A stretch of DNA of 64,000 bases, taken from positions 372,001 to 436,000 of the forward strand of contig AP026151.1 in NCBI GenBank assembly GCA_030295235.1, read 5' to 3'. Within the stretch, counting starts at the first letter, position 1; every line of letters begins with the position of its first letter. Source of the stretch: Fistulifera solaris. Its lineage: Eukaryota. The translations under genes and the position numbers were made by a program. The notes beneath the pieces were generated by a model. It saw only the letters and a program-made list of their open reading frames with translations. It ran no database searches and was not told the DNA's origin. Of this stretch, positions 6,245 through 17,394 are shown piece after piece.

Positions 6245-8215
6245 AGAATTCTGGAATCAGTGTCTGACAACATAGAGTTAACAGAGATTCTGTATGGATT
6301 TTAGAAATTGTTTGCGGTCAAACAAAGATTCTGTGGTCGATCCAGAAATTCTGGAATCGGTAATTTTGATCAAACATAGATTCTGTGGTCGTTCCAGAAA
6401 TTCTGGACTGTTTGTTTTGACTAATACAGAGATTCTGTGGTCGTTCCAGAAATTCTGGAATCGGGAATTTGGGCTGGTCGTTCCAGAAATAATTCAGGAA
6501 TTGTTGTTTTGGGTCAAACAGAGATTCCGTGGTCGTTCCAGAAATTCTGGAATCGGTGATTTGGATCGAACAGAAATTCTTTTGTCATTCCAGAAATTCT
6601 GGAAAGTGTGTTTTGGATCTAACAGACATCAAATTTGGGAAATGTTGTATTGGGTCAAATAGAGATTCTGTGGCTATTCCAGAAATTCTGGAATCGGGGC
6701 TTTGGGTCAAACCGAGATTCTGTGGTCGAATCAAGATGATAGAATCTATACTTTGGAACAAACAGAGATGCGGTGGTTGTTCCAGAAATTCTGGAATGGG
6801 TGTTTTGGGTCGACCAGAGATTCCGTGTGTTTCGGAGCAAACAGAGATTCCGTGGTCGTTCCGGAAATTCTGGAAGCGAAGCTTTGGGTCAAACAGCGAT
6901 TCTGTGGTCGTTCCGGAAATTCAGGAATCGGTGATATGGATCAAACAGAGATTCTGTATTCGTTCAGGATATTCGGGAATGGTTGTATTGGGTCATACGA
7001 AAGTCTGTGGTCGTTTCAGAAAATCTGGAATATGTTTTTTTGGTACAAACAGAGATTTGGTAGTCGTTCCAGAAATTCTGGAATCGGTAGTTTGGGTCGC
7101 ATAGAGACTATGTTGTCGTTCCAGAAATTCTGGAAGTGAGTCGAACAGAGATTCTGTGGTCGCTCAACAAATTTTGGAAGTGGTGGTTTGGATCAAACAG
7201 AGGTTCTTTAGTCCTTCCAGGTATTCCGTAATCAGTGTTTTGGATCATACATAAATTCTGTGCCCGTTTCAGATATTCTGGAATGGTTGTATTGGGTCAT
7301 ACGAAAGTCTGTGGTCGTTTCAGAAAATCTGGAATATATTTTTTGGCACAAAGAGAGATTCGGAAGTCGTTCCAGAAATTCTGGAATCGGTAATTTTGGT
7401 CGCATAGCGACTCTGTGGGTTCTCCAGAATTTCTGGAATTTGTAATTTGGGTCAAACAGAGATTCTGTGGTCGTTCCAGAGATTCTGGAATTGGTAATTT
7501 AGGTCAAACAGAGATTCTTTGGTGATTCCAGTTATTCAAATTTGGGTCAAACAGAGACTCTGTGGTAGTTCCAGAAATTCTGGAATCGGTAACTTGGGTC
7601 AAACAGAGATTCTGTGGTCGTTTCAGAAATTCTGGAATCGGAAATTCGGGTAGAAAAGAGATTCTGCGATCTTTCGAAAAAATTCTGGAAGTGGTGACAT
7701 GGATCAAACAGAGATTCGCTAGTCGTTCCAGATATTCTAAAATATCCATTTTGGCACAAACAGAGATTCGGTGGTCGTTCCAGAAATTCTGGAATCTGTA
7801 ATTTGGGTCAAACAGAGACTCTGTGGCTATTCCAGAAATTCTGGAATCGGTACTTTGGGTCGCATAGAGACTCTCTGGGCTCTCCAGAAATTCTGGAATT
7901 TGTATTTTGGGTCAATCAGAGAACCAGAGATTCTGGAATCGGTAATTTAGGTCGCGTAGAGACTCTATGGTAGTTCCAGAAATTCTGGAATTAGTAATTT
8001 AGGTCAAACAGAGATTCTGTGGTAGTTCCAGAAATTCTGGAATCGGCAATATTTGGGTCAAACAGAGATTCTTTGGTAGTTCCAGAAATTCTGGAATCGG
8101 TAATTTGGGTCAAACAGAGATTCTGTGGTAGTTCCAGAAATTCTGGAATCGGTAATTTGGGTCAAAAGAGATTCTGTCAAACAGAGATTCTGTGGTCGTT
8201 CTAGAAATTCTGGAC
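6245..8215. repeat. Tandem satellite/minisatellite, 52-bp unit, roughly 35-38 degenerate copies
   Basis: Consensus CAGAGATTCTGTGGT(C/A)GTTCCAGAAATTCTGGAATCGGTAATTTGGGTCAAA; consecutive unit starts at 8063 and 8115 give the 52-bp period. Core palindrome TTCCAGAA-A-TTCTGGAA. Confidence 0.95.
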
Positions 8216-8953
8216 TCGTACAGAGTAGTGAACATCTAAGCTTGTCGTAATAGACCACTTGTTCAGAAACAGTCCAGCAATAATTGAATTTCCAAGTTTT
8301 ATCTACAACCTTGTTCTAAAAGGCTTGATTCGTGAACAATGAACACCACTTGTTCATAGAGAGGTGTTACCAGTTTCCATCACAAATATATAATTTCACG
8401 GGACACAATTTTGGTGGATCAAGTCACCCTTTAACAACGGATATTTATTCGCCAAAATTGGCTAGAGGAGTAAGGCTTTTTTTGTAGGAACAAACGGTCA
8501 AGAAGTCGGCCGTCAATTTGACCTCCAACGGTATAAATAAGCCACTTTATTAGTAATACTAAATGCCTTCTTCCGACAAAAATACACAATTTTTCATTCT
8601 TTGTACATCATTGATATTTTGAAATTTTCTCAGCTATAAGCTACAGTAGTACTATCAATGACCTGTAGCGAGAAATTTAACATTCATTCGACCATAGTAA
8701 AGTCCAAAAAAACCATGGATTCTCAAAAATCCTACCCCCACACCCCCTTGTCACGGCGAAAGTAAAACTTTTCGGATTCCTCAGAATTCGTGAGATAAAA
8801 TTATTAACAAGAGAAGAAATAAAAAAAAGACTAGAGTTGTGCTACAAAGCTTTATATTATTGGGTAAGGTGCTCTCGAGAAGTATCGAACAATTGAAAAT
8901 AAAACATGAAACATGGATTACTATGTAATGTAGATTATATTGATTGTATATGT

Positions 8954-10354
8954 TTAGATAAAAGGAACAAAAGCGTCGTCAGCTTCGTCGGCGGCATTGT
9001 CTAAGCCGGCAAAGAAATCAACCGTGCGCTTCAATGCAGCAATTAATGCATCAATATCTTCCTTGGTATTGTAGAAATAGCAACTCGCTCGTGCCGAATG
9101 AGGAATTCCGAGTTCCGCATGCAACGGCTGACAGCAGTGATGTCCGGCCCGCACGGCGATGCCATCCATATCCAAGAAAGTGCTCAGATCGCTGGGATGA
9201 ATCGATTCGTGATAAAAGGCACACAAGGCCGCCCGCTTCTTCGGATCCTTCGGTCCCAACAAAGTCAGCCCGGGAACTGTTTGGAGCTGTTCATACAGAT
9301 ATTCCGCGAGTTCGTGTTCGTACTCTTCAATGTCTTTCATACCAATTTTCTCCAAGTAGTCAATGGCCGCACCCAAACCAATGGCCTGAGCAATGGCGGG
9401 TGTACCGGCTTCAAATCGACCGGGCGCCGCTTGGAAGGTCACGGATTCCAACGTCACTTGATCGATCATTTCACCGCCACTTTTCCAAGGTGGCATTTCG
9501 TTCAACAATTGTTCCTTGCCCCAGAGAAACCCGATCCCCGTCGGACCGCACATTTTGTGCCCCGATGCTGCCAAAAAGTCCACTCCAAGATCCTGAACAT
9601 CGACCACCATGTGCGGTAAGGATTGACAAGCGTCCAGTACAATGGCGGCATGCGGGGCATGGCGGCGGACTTTCTGAACAATCTCTTTGACGGGATTGAT
9701 GCACGCCAACACATTCGACACGTGCTGAAAGGCCACAATCTTGGTCCTTTCGTTCAAGTATCCTTCCAATTCGTTGACATTGATTCCTCCCGTTTCGGGA
9801 TCTAAATGAACAAATTTCAGGTTCAAATTCTTTTCCTGTGCCAAGAGCTGCCACGGCACAAAATTGGCGTGATGTTCGGCGACCGTCAACACGATTTCAT
9901 CACCAGCTGCCAAGTTGGCACGTCCGTAACTGTGCGCCACCAAATTGATGGCTTCCGTGGCACCCGATGTAAACACAATTTCATTGCGACTGTATGCGTT
10001 CACAAAATGGGCAACTTTGTCACGCGCGGCTTCGTACGCCGACGTCGCTTCTCGACTGAGCGTATGCGCACCCCGATGCACGTTACTGTTGGTGCGTTCG
10101 TAGTAGCTTTGCAGGACGTCCAAGACGTCTTGGGGCTTTTGGGAAGTGGCGCCGGAATCTAAATAGATGACGGGGGTCTCTTGATCCGTAATGGTGCGTT
10201 TCAGGATGGGAAAATCACCCCTTGTTCGCTCTCCCATGGACGCGGTGGCCGTCGATGCGGCACGTGCGCTGTTGCGCAGCGTTATTTCATTTCGAACCGT
10301 GAAGGCATGACCGCCAGAAACAATGCAGAGGAATAGAAATGGCTGGAAGAACAT
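8954..10354 (-). CDS. sufS: SufS-type (group II) cysteine desulfurase, plastid-targeted
   Basis: Start MFFQPFLFLCIVSGGHA-FTVR. Motifs YLDSGATSQKP, NVHRGAH, EHHAN, SGHKMCGPTGIG (PLP lysine), FEAGTP, RAGHHC (catalytic Cys). Intact intronless ORF. Confidence 0.96.
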   Translation of the reverse strand: MFFQPFLFLCIVSGGHAFTVRNEITLRNSARAASTATASMGERTRGDFPILKRTITDQETPVIYLDSGATSQKPQDVLDVLQSYYERTNSNVHRGAHTLSREATSAYEAARDKVAHFVNAYSRNEIVFTSGATEAINLVAHSYGRANLAAGDEIVLTVAEHHANFVPWQLLAQEKNLNLKFVHLDPETGGINVNELEGYLNERTKIVAFQHVSNVLACINPVKEIVQKVRRHAPHAAIVLDACQSLPHMVVDVQDLGVDFLAASGHKMCGPTGIGFLWGKEQLLNEMPPWKSGGEMIDQVTLESVTFQAAPGRFEAGTPAIAQAIGLGAAIDYLEKIGMKDIEEYEHELAEYLYEQLQTVPGLTLLGPKDPKKRAALCAFYHESIHPSDLSTFLDMDGIAVRAGHHCCQPLHAELGIPHSARASCYFYNTKEDIDALIAALKRTVDFFAGLDNAADEADDAFVPFI

Positions 10355-10551
10355 TATGAGGTTGGCGGTCGAAGAAGCAGAACAAAATGTCGACGAGTTC
10401 AATTTTTTATAAGTAGTTGCTGCGTTCCTGAAAGATACAATTTTTTGAATTTGAATCTTCTTTCTTCTTCTCTCTGTGGAGGTATTTTGCTTGGTGAATG
10501 GAATCACTTGACAAAAGCCCTTCGTCGCTCGACTAAAACTAACATCATTAA

Positions 10552-10716
10552 TATTGATATTGCCCCTCACCGGTGCGACACCAATCAGTGACGCGCCCGA
10601 GGCAATGACACAAAGCCCTCGAATCCAGGACCACTCATCACTCGCAACCAAGTAAACATACCTCATAAATTCGTATAACACTTTTGTTGTCGACTGTGCT
10701 GTTGTAGAGATCAACA
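10552..10716 (+). repeat. 5' LTR (165 bp)
   Basis: TATTGAT…ATCAACA; identical to the 3' LTR except one extra C in a C-run (AAAGCCCTC vs AAAGCCTC). Confidence 0.97.
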
Positions 10717-10728
10717 GTTATACGAATT
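10717..10728 (+). other. Primer-binding-site position of the retrotransposon, complementary to LTR nt 10668-10679 (candidate self-priming PBS)
   Basis: GTTATACGAATT follows the LTR terminal CA with no spacer, lacks the TGG expected for tRNA-CCA priming, and is the exact reverse complement of AATTCGTATAAC inside the LTR. Confidence 0.8.
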
Positions 10729-10833
10729 CCCGTTGTTCCTTTGCACTGTTCGTGCTTTTCCTTCTCTAGCCGTCGCTAGCCTTCCCTGCCTTCTAGCTTC
10801 TTATCCCGCACCGTCGTGCGCCCGGTCATCATC

Positions 10834-13800
10834 ATGACAGTTTCTCTCCTCCAACCTTTCGGTTGCCATACGATCCGCTCACGCCCATTCGCCGGCAAAC
10901 CTTCTTATGCCACCGCCGAACGCCGGCCGTGAGATGATGGCAAACGCCCTTTCCGTCTCTTCTCCCCATTGGGGGCGGGCGTCATGGGCATGTCTTTCTC
11001 CTCCTCTCCGATGCGGAATTCGAGGCCCTCGCCAACGCTCTCCCGCCGTTGCGCTCGTCCACCCCGGTCCTCATGTCGAGTATCCACCCAACGCCACCAG
11101 TGCTCAGCGTGCCGATGCGAATCGGGCCTACGATACCGCTAGGTTGAGGACTACGAAGCGTCAAGAATACGTTCACAACTTGTTGCGTCAGCTTGTCAAC
11201 AAGGCCGTCGAACCCATGTATTTGATGCCGCTTCGTACCACCGTCGTCGGTCTTGGTCGTGTTGACATGGACAGCAATCTCATCCATATTCGCTGACATA
11301 CTCGCTTACTTGGTGGACAACTACACCACCATCACCGCTGCTGAAATCGAATCGAATCGTTGCCAGCCTGTTGAGCGCTTGGTCTCCTGACCAACCGATC
11401 CAGGCGTTGTGGAATCGTCACTTGGAGATTCGCGAGTTTGCTGAAGCCGCGGGAGAACCACTTTCTGATCGTACTATGATGGATCAGACGTTGGCGCTTC
11501 TCACCAACATCGGTCACGGCTCGTTCCAGTCCGCTATGGATGCATGGCGTCGTCGTTCTGCGCGGCGGACAAAACGTCGCCAACTTTGTGGAACACTTTA
11601 CGGCAGAGCATGCTGCTTTGCAGGAGCAACGCACCACTTCGGCCGCCGGTTATCATCACGCCAATGCGGCCGGGCGCTGGCAGCTCCTCCTCTCGTCCCA
11701 CCGGCACCGCACTTGGCCGCCGCCAGTGGTCCGTCCGTCGCCCCTTCAAACCCTTTTGAAGTGGTCTGCCATGGGGGATTCAAGATGCATTATTGCTGGA
11801 CCCACGGGTTGGGGTTGAATCCTCAACACACCAGCCAGTCGTGCAACAATCCTGGCGACGGACATGTCCGCACTGCAACGTTGCAAACTGCCAAGGACAC
11901 TAAGGGTAGCACTCGGATCAATCTGGCGGCCGTCGGCCTCCTCCGGCTCCGGCTGCGGCTCCGGCTCAGGCCTGAGAACGGGGGGAAGCCTACGGTACGC
12001 ATTGAATTGCCCGATAACGATATTAAACCATCCGAATCAGCATTTAATGTCTCTACTGTAGGTCCTCCCGCCTCGTTATCCCCATCCCTCTGACGGTATT
12101 GCCGACTCTGGTTGTACCAGTCACTTTTTACCCGTCGACACTCCCGTCGAATCCTGTGTTCCCACTTTGCATCCCATCACGATTGCTAATCCCAACGGCA
12201 CGCTCATGTATTCCACTCATGATGCTGTGCTTGCCCTTCCCGGACTTCCGCTGTCAGCCCCGAACGGCCCATGTGGTTCCTGACTTGCACACCAAGCCCC
12301 TTCTCTCCATCGGTCAGTTGTGCGACGCCCGGGTGCACCGTTCACTTCACTGCGGAACGCATTCACGTGCATTTTAACGGGTCGCTTATCCTCTCCGGTA
12401 AGCGATCTTCGGAAACAAAGTTGTCGACTCTCCCCCTTTCTTCTCCCACTGCCGGATTTTTCTGCCAATGAGCCCTCTGCGCAAGCATTGGCGGTGTCTG
12501 AGGGTGCGTCTCCCCCCGACGCCGTTCCTGTTTCGGGAGTCCGTGTCTGTGTCTCATTTGGCACCGTGTCTCTCGGATACACATTTGGCCGTGTCTGAGG
12601 GTGCGCGCCCCCCGTTACCTTTCTGTCCACCCCGTCCGTGGCTGTGGATGTCTCGACCCCGTGTATTCCCCGCGCTCCCCCAGCGGTGCCTGTGGGTGTG
12701 TCGTCCTCACACAGTCACCCCATCGCCATGTCTGAGGGTGTCGGGTCCCCAACTGACACTGTCTGTCCATTCGTGTCTCCTTCAGTCACGGATTCGGGCT
12801 AATGCCGCCGTCTCGGTCACCACTCCGGCTTCCTTGGTTGCTTTTGCTCATGCTACTCTCTTTTCGGCCAGCACTTTCCACTTTGGACGCCGCATTACAG
12901 CGTGATCTTCTACCACATTTCCCGGCCTAACCCGTCACACGTTACGCCGTCACCCGCCTCATTCAATCGCTATGACCAAAGGCCATTTGGATCAAATTCG
13001 CAAAAATCTCCGCTCTACTAAGCGCCCTGGCATCTTGGCCACCACCAATGCCCAATCCACAGAGTCCGACCTCCAATGTGACGCCTTCCCGGAACCACTT
13101 CTTGATGCCGAGCGAACTCATCATTGCTTCGCCGGCATTATCCAGCCAACCGGCCAAACCTATAGCGACCAGACTGGTCGTTTCCCCGCCCTCTCCAGTA
13201 CAGGCAACAATTATCTTTTTGTCTTATATGACTACGATAGTAATTGCATTTTTGCCGAACCTCTCCCAAGTCGCAAGGCCAATCACATTTTGACCGCTTT
13301 TCAGACCGTCCATTCGCGAACTTTGTCGGGCGGGACTCAAACCCTCGTCTGCATCGTCTCGACAACGAATGTGACATTTCGCTCAAGGAATTTATGGTCG
13401 ACAAAGGTATCGACTTTCAGCTCACCCCGCCACATGTTCATCGCCGCAATGCGGCGAACGTGCCATTCGAACGTTCCAAAACCACTTTATAGCCGGTTTG
13501 TGCAGCACTGACCGCAACTTCCCCATTCATTTATGGGATCGGTTGTTGCCGCAAGCATTACTTACCTTGAATCTTTTACGCACGTCTCGCATCAATCCTC
13601 GCTTGTCCGGCCTATGCACAAGTCTTCGGAGCATTCAATTTCGATCGCACCCCACTCGGCCCCCCCTGGCACCAAGGTCCTTGTCCACGAAAAACCCGGG
13701 CAACGCACTACTTGGGCGCCGCACGCAGTGGAAGGTTGGTATCTGGGTCCCGCATTGGAATCGTATCGCTGCTTTCGTGTGTGGATTTGGGACACCAAAA

Positions 13801-16064
13801 TGGAACGCATCACCGATACTCTCGAGTGGTTCCCCGAGCATGTTACCATGCCTTCTGCCTCGCCCCGCGGATGTGTTATTGGCAGGTCTTCGCTGACGTT
13901 TCCCAGGCCCTCCGTGATCCAGGACTACCGTCCGCTTTACCCATCAGTGCCGACAGTCATGTGGCGGAGTTAAAACGTCTCGTAGACGTCCTCACGGGTC
14001 CCGCCGACACCCCGATCAACCTTCCTCCTCCCGCCTCGTCTTGCCCTCCTCCCTCGTCTCGCACGGACCCGAAGCGTGTCACCTTCGCTGACGATGTACC
14101 GCTGAGTACTGCGCCTTCCTCGCCACAGCTTCGTACTATCGATACACCTTTCACTGGCAGTGTCAAAAAACGATCTGCTCGGACTCGGCCGCGCACCAAA
14201 TCGTCTCCTCGCAACCACCGACATGCTCCCCACCATTCGCACGGCACTCGGGCCAACAAACGAATTGCTCTAGCCGCCACTGCGTCCGCCACTAACGTAT
14301 CCCCCGGCGAATCTTTCTTACATCATGCGTTACACGGAAATGCTCTCAATCCCGAAACCGGCAAAGTCGCGGAATATCCCGAATTGAGTCGTTCGTCTGA
14401 TGGCCCTAAATGGATAAACGCCAATGATGAGGGAAGTTCACCGTCTCGCCCAAGGGTATCGCGACATCAAAGGGTCCAACACTTTGAACTTCATTTCCAT
14501 CAAGGATATTCCGAAGGGCGTCGCGCGTATGTTCGTGTTGTTTGTGCTTTTCGGCCGGAGAAGGATAACCCATTTCGTGTCCGTTGGTGCATCGGCGGTG
14601 ACCAGATCTACTTCGCTGGTGACAAGTCTACCAAAACAGCGGCATTGGAAACTGCCAAACTGTTTTTCAATAGCGTGTTGTCCACCAAGAACGGCAAAAT
14701 GATGACTCTAGATCTCAAGGACTACTATCTCGGCACCACCTTGCCGACTTGGAATACATTCGCATTCGGTGGCACTCCTTTCCCAGCACATCATTGACCA
14801 TTACAACCTTGAGCCACTCATTCATAAAGGTTTCGTTTACGCGCTGATTAGCAAGGGCATGTATGGTCTACCTCAAGCGGGAAAGTTGGCCAATGATCAA
14901 CTTATCGATCGTTTAGCTCCTCATGGGTATCATCCAGTCCCGCACACGCACGGGTTATGGCGCGATTCACGGTCCGATTTAACCTTCACCCTTGTCGTGG
15001 ACGATTTTGCCGTCAAATACACCAACGAAACTGACGTTCATCGGCTTCTCACCACTTCACGAGAGTCAGGCTATCGACTTTCCGAAGATTGGTCGGGTAC
15101 ACGCTATGTCGGTCTCCACCTCGATTGGGATTATAATGCGGCGTGCCGTCGGACGTTTCTATGCCCGGTTACATTGAACGCTGCCTTGTCTCGGTTCCAG
15201 CATGCAGCTCCCGTTGAACCTGAGGACTCCCCACACCCGTGGCAACAACCTGTGTACGGTGCCAAAACCCAATACACTGATGCTCCAGACGACACTCCGT
15301 TTTTGGATGCCAAGGATATCAACTTGCTACAACAAATCATTGGCGTGCTTCTCTATTATGCGCGTGCCGTTGACAGCACCATGCTGCCCGCATTGGGTTC
15401 CATCGCCGCCATGCAAGCCAAACCAACCATGAAGACTATGGAAACGTTGACCCAACTTCTCAATTATTGCGCGTCGCATCCATCCGCCGTCATTCGGGGT
15501 ACCATGCTAGCGACATGGTTCTATGGATTGACAGCGATGCCTCAGATTTGAGTGTTTCGGAAGCCAGATCCCGGGCCGCTGGATACTATTTTCTAAGTTC
15601 CAATCCGGCATCTTTGTCCGATCCTACCTCGCCACCAGCCAACGGGCGCCATCACAGTCTATTGTCAAATTATGAAGCACGTCGTCTCTAGCGCTGCGGA
15701 GGCGGAATTGGGAGCCCTATTTTTAAATGCACAGAATTCCTGTCCGTTACGTGTCGCCCTTAGAAGAAATGGGTCATCCCCAACCAGCAACCCCTATTCA
15801 AACGGATAATAGTACGGCCGCTGGTATTGTCAACGACACAGTCAAACAAAAGCGCTCTAAGGCAATGGACATGCGATTCTATTGGATTCAGCGATCGGGT
15901 ACGTCAAGGTCAATTTCATGTTTATTGGAAAGAGGGGGCAGGTAACAAGGCTGATTATTTTACGAAACATCATGCTACGGGCGCATCATCGCTCAATGCG
16001 TCCTTTGTATCTACATGAGCCTTCTTCTGGGTCCTACTATGATCCCATCAGCGCCTTCTCCTGA
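10834..16064 (+). CDS. Retrotransposon Gag-Pol (Gag, aspartic protease, integrase, reverse transcriptase, RNase H); many frameshifts in this sequence
   Basis: Gag YCWTHG…HTSQSC knuckle (~11790-11845); protease IADSGCTSHF (~12098); integrase DQTGRFP…LYDYDSN (~13170); RT KGMYGLPQAG and LVVDDF (~14850-15010); RNase H DSDAS…RSRAAG, AAEAELGALF, TDNSTA, KRSKAMDMRFYW. Confidence 0.92.
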
Positions 16065-16108
16065 TGTTTCTAGCTCGATCTCCGACTCCGAGATTCGAGG
16101 TGAGGGTG

Positions 16109-16272
16109 TATTGATATTGCCCCTCACCGGTGCGACACCAATCAGTGACGCGCCCGAGGCAATGACACAAAGCCTCGAATCCAGGACCACTCATCACTCG
16201 CAACCAAGTAAACATACCTCATAAATTCGTATAACACTTTTGTTGTCGACTGTGCTGTTGTAGAGATCAACA
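16109..16272 (+). repeat. 3' LTR (164 bp)
   Basis: Direct repeat of 10552-10716, preceded by the PPT and followed by TSD ATTAA. Confidence 0.97.
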
Positions 16273-17394
16273 ATTAAAACACACATGAAGGAGGAGAAAC
16301 GCAATGCATGCTTTCTTTGCCCCATTGCAGCTGTACGACGAAAAGTAAGAATTTGGGTACCGGTCTCGTCCGTCCGCGAATGAATGAGGATGACGTGAAC
16401 GCATTTGATGTCGTACCGAAATAAGCTTGATATTGCAACGGATGCGGAAATCCGAAGACCGCGACTGACCAATCACACTTTTGGAGTAACTCAGTCACGG
16501 ATGTTATGGCCATGCTGTTTACACTTTCAATCTATAGTAATTCTACATCGCCGCCCCCGTTTGACCGCCGACCGTGAGAAAATCGCTGACAACTGACAAC
16601 TGACAAACAATTGGTGGTCACTCCGTGGCCCAGTGGTAACCCCAAGGCTTTCGTCGTCGGGGGTTGGAACTGATATCGGATCCTCCCTCGCCACCTCCAC
16701 CACACGTGGCAAATGTGGTGTTCTCATTGATATTTCCGCCGTTTCCACAACGCTTCTACTGGGTTGAGGATCTGCTTTCTGCTGGGAGCTGGGAGCTGGG
16801 AGTTCGGATTCCGTAGTAATGTAGTATAATCAATTTTGTAGTAAAGAGGCTAGATGGGTCTATGTTGTCAGATCGCAGACGTCCCCGTAAGGGTTGATAT
16901 CTGTGGTCTGGCATCGCCCGTTGGAGCCAGGTTGACACATTGACACACACAAACAATTGGTGGAATTCCATGGACTGTCGTTGGCAGACACATGCGTTAC
17001 TGGTCCGTCATTTCTTAGTACTATAGACGTTCCTGTACGAACGATTGTCGTTGAACAGTCGTTGTCACCTTAAGTAGTTCATTCAACGGCCCAACGCATG
17101 CTTTCATTGGATCCCGCACTGTGGTTATTTAGACGAAAACAACCTAAGTGTTGTACAGAAATTTCGATTGTCGGCCAGCCCGCGTCCACCGATTTAGGAC
17201 ATCGATTCGGTCGATCTTTTTTAGCGATGACAGAGCACCGCGTTGGGCAATAAAATACAACAGCGGCAATCAAGAATCAAAGGACGCGATGCGTTAACTG
17301 TTATCATCTGGACGTTGAGATACTCGCACCTTTATTACGCTTTCCTTCAAGAAATAAGACGGATTGAAGCAATCGACCTCGCAAGCCACACACC

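Follow-up and report, generated by a model that had tools for sequence, protein, structure and literature searches.

The window analysed here, a stretch of 64,000 nucleotides from Fistulifera solaris, contains a complete LTR retrotransposon of 5,721 bp at 10552-16272 on the + strand (all features below are on this strand unless another one is named). Its limits were set in the following way: the 5' LTR, 165 nt long (TATTG...CAACA, 10552..10716), was aligned with the 3' LTR, 164 nt long (16109..16272), the only difference between the two being one C within a run of C, and the same five nucleotides, ATTAA, lie outside both LTRs as a target-site duplication (10547..10551 and 16273..16277). A polypurine tract (PPT), GAGGTGAGGGTG, occupies 16097..16108 and adjoins the start of the 3' LTR, while the internal gag-pol region extends over 10729..16096 and is split over many frames in this copy, as judged from a three-frame translation. 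Hence the two LTRs, the 5-bp target-site duplication and the polypurine tract before the 3' LTR by which LTR elements of the Ty1/Copia kind are recognized are all present. No further copy of the element was found within the window. As for the neighborhood, an open frame on the - strand covers 8954-10666, and its translation resembles, by eye, a cysteine desulfurase of the SufS/NifS type; as this frame extends into the LTR, its real start is probably downstream. The retrotransposon lies near the 5' end of this SufS/NifS-like gene, in divergent orientation. Further away, at 6269-8219, there is a long tandem array of a 52-nt repeat, with at least 26 copies which are 60-90% identical.

We compared the window with contigs of four sequencing runs, all of them Logan contigs; three of these runs are called X1, X2 and X3 in what follows. 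A contig from the X2 metagenome displays the empty site: it joins position 10546 to position 16273, skipping 5,726 bases, and five letters at the joint fit both sides. This means that the LTR truly ends with the CAACA at 10716, and that the complementary stretch described below begins with the very next base. Both junctions between flank and LTR are crossed by X1 contigs which show no difference from the window, and the 3' LTR is identical to an X1 contig covering the LTR. From the empty-site contig taken together with the junction-crossing contigs, we concluded that the insertion is real, recent and polymorphic, and therefore that the family was active recently. The element is a diatom LTR retrotransposon of the Copia type, and its insertion is both young and polymorphic. 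Two other contigs deserve mention. One, from X1, matches the flanks at 10386-10523 and 16349-16418 with 16 and 9 substitutions, respectively, the room of the element being taken by 94 other letters; its appearance is that of a diverged second allele or homeologue which lacks the insertion. The other, from X2, the same metagenome that has the empty site, runs from the LTR end (behind 16272) into unrelated sequence, and is another copy of the LTR, either a solo LTR or a second insertion.

In both flanks and in the LTR the contigs agree with the window letter for letter, which is not so in the interior of the element. Between 10729 and 16096, the short-read contigs of X1, X2 and X3 share many indels of 1-2 nt with respect to the window, and a single X1 contig shows 56 gaps and 15 substitutions over 5,430 nt of the interior, against 0 in the flanks. 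As the contigs of three runs have these indels in common, the copy present in the window, or its assembly, gives no faithful picture of the coding capacity of the element. The broken reading frames may reflect assembly errors in a repeat rather than decay.

Once translated, the interior yields, in this order, protease-like, integrase-like, reverse transcriptase (RT) and RNase H-like pieces, in many different frames. The protease-like stretch (12062..12280) was recognized by eye in the translation from its DSG motif and has no Pfam match. The integrase-like region (12906..13970), upstream of the RT, aligns with the full-length relatives; it has a weak match to the Pfam family SH3_retrovirus at 13512-13970, with 17.7 bits for a cutoff of 27, and this match too is upstream of the start of the RT at 14712. 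The RT (14712..15548) is probably of the Copia type: RVT_2 is the only RT family of Pfam to be matched, at scores below its cutoff of 31.6 (20.4 bits for the window fragment, 28.5 bits for P0007, a full-length relative). The RNase H-like region (15374..16015) has no Pfam match and can be aligned to C-terminal blocks which are conserved in the relatives. When the window fragments and two full-length relatives were submitted to Pfam, these sub-threshold matches to RVT_2 and SH3_retrovirus were the only ones, and neither rve nor a chromodomain was seen. The affinity of the element is with diatoms, its closest named proteins coming from Fistulifera solaris (80% identity of the RT fragment with a protein named RT Ty1/copia in UniRef) and from Fragilaria crotonensis (53-55%). 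All the named top matches of this RT are diatom proteins with RTs of the Copia type, many RT homologues bear a precomputed Pfam RVT_2 label, and a scan of viral contigs with the window RT returned no relative. The element is similar to CoDi, the Copia-like elements of diatoms (Maumus et al. 2009, PMC2806351), which are also about 5-6 kb long with short LTRs and 5-bp target-site duplications. We also considered membership in the Tf1/sushi family, which is defined by a Gypsy RT, a downstream integrase and a chromodomain, and rejected it, as RVT_2 is the best match, the integrase-like region is upstream and there is no chromodomain.

The stretch which follows the 5' LTR is the main subject of this work. 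A sequence-only reading of the window had claimed that these 12 nt are the perfect reverse complement of a segment of the same LTR, and that there is neither a TGG nor a spacer at the LTR edge. Both claims hold. The 5' arm, AATTCGTATAAC (10668..10679), is complementary at 12 nucleotides out of 12 to GTTATACGAATT (10717..10728), the predicted primer-binding site (PBS), here of a self-complementary type, which starts at offset 0 from an LTR whose end is set by the target-site duplication and by the empty-site contig; no spacer separates the two and no TGG follows the 5' LTR. The 37 nt between the arms (10680..10716) would be the rest of R plus U5, that is, the template for minus-strand strong-stop DNA. 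No other inverted repeat of at least 8 nt exists in 10552-10760, and neither arm has any listed difference in contigs that come from independent runs (for X1, the LTR contig over 16109-16272 and a contig over 10687-16138; for X2, a contig over 10697-12075). A tRNA scan of the window gave 0 genes. In the minimum-energy fold computed for the RNA 10665-10745 (-19.9 kcal/mol, z -2.78), the 12-bp stem is stacked on a 5-bp stem, in which TGTTG (10685-10689) pairs with CAACA (10712-10716). This extra stem had also been proposed from the letters alone; it does appear in the fold of the window but has no equivalent in the relatives, whose loops have no second stem in common, be it of the kind of the Tf1 U5-IR or of the TGTTG/CAACA kind.

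We aligned the RT with 30 homologues and scanned metagenome contigs with the result, which provided 80 loci with 42-59% RT identity. Many of them are assemblies where the two LTRs have been collapsed, so that the order on the contig is RT - PPT - LTR - PBS - gag. A conserved PPT, [AG]AGGGTG, followed by an LTR start which reads TGTTG, TGTTA or TGCTA, is found in most of the loci. We collected, regardless of position, all the perfect inverted repeats of at least 10 nt with a loop of 20-100 nt in the 80 loci and the window element (404,490 nt), and repeated the procedure on 20 block shuffles. There are 75 repeats of at least 10 nt, 46 of which are located at the LTR/internal junction, when the shuffles contain 7-21 (mean 13.6). 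For repeats of at least 12 nt the numbers are 39 and 35, and the shuffles contain 0-2 (mean 0.7). The 46 junction repeats correspond to 41 loci plus the window, four contigs having the junction repeat twice.

Thus 41 of the 80 related loci have a perfect inverted repeat of 10-13 nt, the 3' arm of which begins right after the LTR terminus. Co-variation in relatives was the check put forward with the initial claim, and the claim passes it by a wide margin: complementarity of at least 10 nt between the LTR and the sequence behind it is kept in these loci while the sequence itself differs by family. The LTR termini preceding the 3' arm are conserved (TCAACA, TTAGCA, TCATCA and the like). Two LTR copies fix the end of the LTR independently in three loci, with a target-site duplication in L017 (CATCC) and L044 (CTCCT) and none in L042, and the arm begins at LTR end +1 in all three. 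The loop measures 26-74 nt in the relatives, mostly 31-50 nt. The clade with this putatively self-primed layout is abundant in marine, freshwater and sediment metagenomes. None of the metagenome contigs begins at the arm, as a transcript-like contig would; in the chosen loci described below, the first arm is at least 46 nt away from the contig start.

The other 39 loci have no perfect junction repeat of at least 10 nt with a loop of 20-100 nt. They were classed by eye, without a formal count. About 12 of them retain the layout but have 8-9 perfect pairs, show 1-3 mismatches in 12 or, in the case of L079, have 11 perfect nucleotides around a loop of 19 nt, just under the limit of the scan. In at least 8, either foreign flank comes after the LTR or the contig stops within it, and several lack an LTR on their contig. 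A few are left without explanation, e.g. L026, L040/L041/L060, L050 and L059. The related sub-family formed by L040, L041 and L060 departs from the usual layout: its stem of 12 nt contains one mismatch and encloses a loop of only 12 nt. A complement of the stretch following the YCATAA-like motif was looked for in these three loci and not found.

Could the complementarity be due to chance in a single element? Apart from the small size of the repeat, 12 nt, nothing points that way. Throughout the window, a 12-mer has its reverse complement within the preceding 165 nt at only 4 sites out of 63,823 positions, 2 of which are in a tandem array, and 41 of the 80 relatives have the repeat at this same place in their structure, to be compared with the 0.7 or so repeats of at least 12 nt expected per shuffle. 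We give this explanation practically no credence, and consider it refuted by the junction scan of the 80 loci and by the count of 12-mers in the window.

The sequence of the arm varies strongly. The 5' arm reads AATTCGTATAAC in the window, TTTACGTAGCTC in L003, TTTACGTAGTTC in L004, TCTTGCTAGAAC in L012, ATACGTAATCAC in L033, ATAACTAATGAA in L045 and TCTTAACACTTC in L067, and in each of these seven elements its exact complement is found after the element's own LTR. For an alignment as a 12-pair helix we chose 42 hairpins without redundancy, of which 34 are perfect and 8 imperfect. It should be kept in mind that these 42 rows were picked because they show the repeat, so that percentages of pairing are inflated by ascertainment and only the scan of the 80 loci is blind to position. 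Within these chosen rows, 95.8% of the cells are paired; sliding the 3' partner by 1-3 columns lowers this proportion to 29-39%. Changes on both sides of a pair account for 187 cells of the same 42 rows and affect 11 of the 12 pairs. The chosen sequences comprise 40 distinct arm 12-mers, with a median of 6 differences.

These figures bear on the possibility that what binds the site is a tRNA of the host, half of a tRNA (the situation in copia, Ty5 and Osser) or another small RNA from the host, the complementarity to the LTR being a side effect. Priming by half-tRNAs is indeed known in Copia lineages (PMC6317226). In such elements, however, the PBS is conserved within a lineage and complementary to an internal part of initiator tRNA-Met, and judged by its variability the PBS described here is of another sort, since 40 different 12-mers in 42 chosen sequences always change along with the LTR segment. 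Being conserved, the tRNAs of the host could not keep pace with such changes, and the TGG is absent. A site that is hypervariable and yet matched to its own element leaves no room for a conserved tRNA of the host or half of one; the host-primer explanation as a whole seems to us very improbable.

The nature of the pairs is informative too. G-U pairs make up 4 of the 504 cells in the 42 chosen rows, all of them in the two outermost pairs. A stem restricted to Watson-Crick pairs would follow from the PBS being copied off its primer. One may alternatively suppose that the stem is a structural RNA, involved in packaging, dimerisation, translation control or help to strand transfer, and that the true primer is something else. 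Retroviruses do have U5 stems around the PBS, and the leader of the window folds only moderately better than its shuffles (the z of -2.78 given above). Yet the 3' arm always begins precisely at LTR end +1, the place of the 3' end of a primer, there is no other conserved candidate for a PBS behind it, and the almost pure Watson-Crick pairing fits templated copying better than selection on folding alone, even if ascertainment has a share in it. We therefore regard a purely structural role as unlikely.

Outside the pairing itself, the context of the arm is constrained. We counted positions from the 3' end of the arm in the 42 chosen sequences: there is a C at -1 in 40 of them and an A at -5 in all 42, the arm's 3' end serving as the anchor, and a T-rich run is found at +4 to +6 after the arm. 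In the decayed copies L014, L029, L035, L057 and L080, a stem mismatch recurs, an A of the 5' arm standing opposite a C of the PBS at -5 or -6; position -5 from the putative cut is otherwise the invariant A. Upstream, a block YYCATAA is present, and in 38 of the 42 sequences the A of CAT[AT] is 15-17 nt before the end of the arm. This block recalls TCAH(+1)W, which Kadono et al. 2015 proposed as an initiator-like consensus of diatoms (PMC4686930); the strict form TCAHW is found in that register in 27 of the 42 chosen relatives. In the window the motif is TCATA (10663..10667), which fits the diatom consensus and keeps the fixed register of the relatives; it predicts an RNA start at about 10666, with T10666 as the putative first nucleotide, two bases before the arm. 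With such a start, the complementarity falls 1-6 nt, usually 2-3 nt, short of the predicted 5' end of the RNA.

The priming of reverse transcription is among the steps that define LTR elements, and as a rule a tRNA serves for it. Predictions of self-priming exist for the Tf1/sushi and Tcn1 groups; to our knowledge, experimental proof has been given only for Tf1. The element boundaries, the geometry of the repeat, its co-variation throughout the clade and the motif upstream of it point to the following course of events, which we infer from sequence. The RNA would start at the YCATAA initiator-like motif of the 5' LTR, at about 10666-10668. Its first 14-16 nt would fold back, the last 10-13 nt of them (10668-10679 in the window) pairing with 10717-10728. 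The RNase H of the element would cut after the conserved C, between 10679 and 10680, and the 3' OH freed in this way would prime minus-strand synthesis through the 37-nt remainder of U5 and R, giving a strong-stop DNA of about 37 nt. Later on, plus-strand strong-stop synthesis would copy the RNA primer, and the PBS would thus be rewritten from the primer in every cycle. Such a rewriting would explain why the match is perfect, limited to Watson-Crick pairs and specific to each family. If transcription starts at the initiator-like motif, on the other hand, the 1-6 unmatched nucleotides at the 5' end count against a simple copy-back of the whole primer.

The fold-back could also take place between molecules: the 5' end of a second co-packaged RNA copy, or a 5' fragment cut off from it, would anneal to the PBS in trans. 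The sequence data are equally compatible with priming in trans and in cis, and the loops are short (26-74 nt), with no conserved second structure which would guide an intramolecular fold. We hold this variant to be rather unlikely, though less so than a purely structural stem. Returning to self-priming at large, the first interpretation of the window, namely a Copia element which is independent of tRNA and primes itself as Tf1 does, is supported by the co-variation test on the 80 loci. As far as sequence comparison can tell, it is quite probable that self-priming resembling that of Tf1 extends over the clade, the tRNA PBS having given way to a site with complementarity to the 5' terminus of the element's own RNA. 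With less assurance, we are inclined to think that a diverse clade of diatom Copia elements gave up tRNA priming, that the first 14-16 nt of an initiator-driven transcript became the minus-strand primer, and that this represents a further independent origin of Tf1-like self-priming. This last reading, to which we likewise only incline, would come with rules of its own: an invariant A five nucleotides before the cut, a C at the cut, an unpaired 5' tail of 2-3 nt and a strong-stop DNA of about 30-50 nt.

The mechanism of Tf1 is self-priming (PMC7175516). Like the window element, Tf1/Tf2 and the Tf1/sushi group (Ty3/Gypsy chromoviruses of S. pombe, other fungi and vertebrates) have no tRNA PBS. 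The bases adjoining the 5' LTR are complementary to a stretch at the expected start of the RNA in both cases, over 11 nt in Tf1 (PMC7175516) and over 10-13 nt here, and in both the 3' end of the primer abuts the LTR edge. The signs by which self-priming is recognized in a sequence, a PBS abutting the 5' LTR, its complementarity to the same LTR and the lack of a tRNA 3'-end signature, are found in the diatom element. Unlike Tf1, it has a Copia-type RT, an integrase-like region upstream of the RT and a diatom as its host; its loop is very short (37 nt), with no conserved second stem; and it possibly leaves a 5' tail of 2-3 nt unpaired, which makes its rule close to that of Tf1 but not identical. 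Cleavage and priming are experimental facts for Tf1, whereas we infer them for the diatom element.

Within Copia, self-priming has been predicted for the plant Ty1/copia lineage TAR (Houba, Osr-1) by Neumann et al. 2019 (PMC6317226). The criterion used there for a self-primer is a complementarity of at least 10 bp to the 5' LTR at a site starting 0-5 bp after the LTR, and the window element, with 12 bp at offset 0, agrees with TAR on that count. TAR is a lineage of land plants; the named top matches of the window RT are all from diatoms. Another comparison is offered by GalEa, a fungal Copia in which a Conserved Hairpin Site takes the place of the PBS (Donnart et al. 2017, PMC5445492). There too, a Copia lineage without a tRNA PBS has a conserved pairing element at the position of the PBS. 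The GalEa site is a palindrome and then a local hairpin, for which Donnart et al. did not find any complement in the LTR (PMC5445492), whereas here the partner is inside the LTR. A site of the GalEa type, palindromic over 9 bp and without an LTR partner, was accordingly rejected for the window, the site of which is non-palindromic and pairs with 10668-10679.

The sequence-only reading had left it undecided whether self-priming was new for such elements. As self-priming was already predicted for TAR (PMC6317226), the combination of Copia and self-priming is not new in itself, and what we found no report of is its occurrence in diatoms. A search of full-text literature, which did not extend to subscription journals, turned up no account of self-priming for elements of diatoms or for CoDi. 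In the main text of PMC2806351, the terms 'primer binding', 'tRNA', 'priming' and 'PPT' do not occur, and the sole 'PBS' is a buffer. The diatom clade is thus an apparently undescribed further lineage which uses a known trick, with an unusually rich natural co-variation.

Finally we must consider what this would mean for the elements and their hosts. Should self-priming be shown to be a trait of the whole diatom Copia clade, an independent and ecologically abundant case would be added to those known. From more than 30 natural compensatory variants one can already tell the free positions from the fixed ones. A rule for annotation follows as well: PBS finders based on tRNAs will miss these elements, and it is the repeat that gives the end of the LTR, the PBS and the likely start of transcription. 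As some diatoms are transformable, the clade offers a model of self-priming that can be tested in such hosts. The analysis suggests, in the end, that these elements are independent of the tRNA pools of their hosts.
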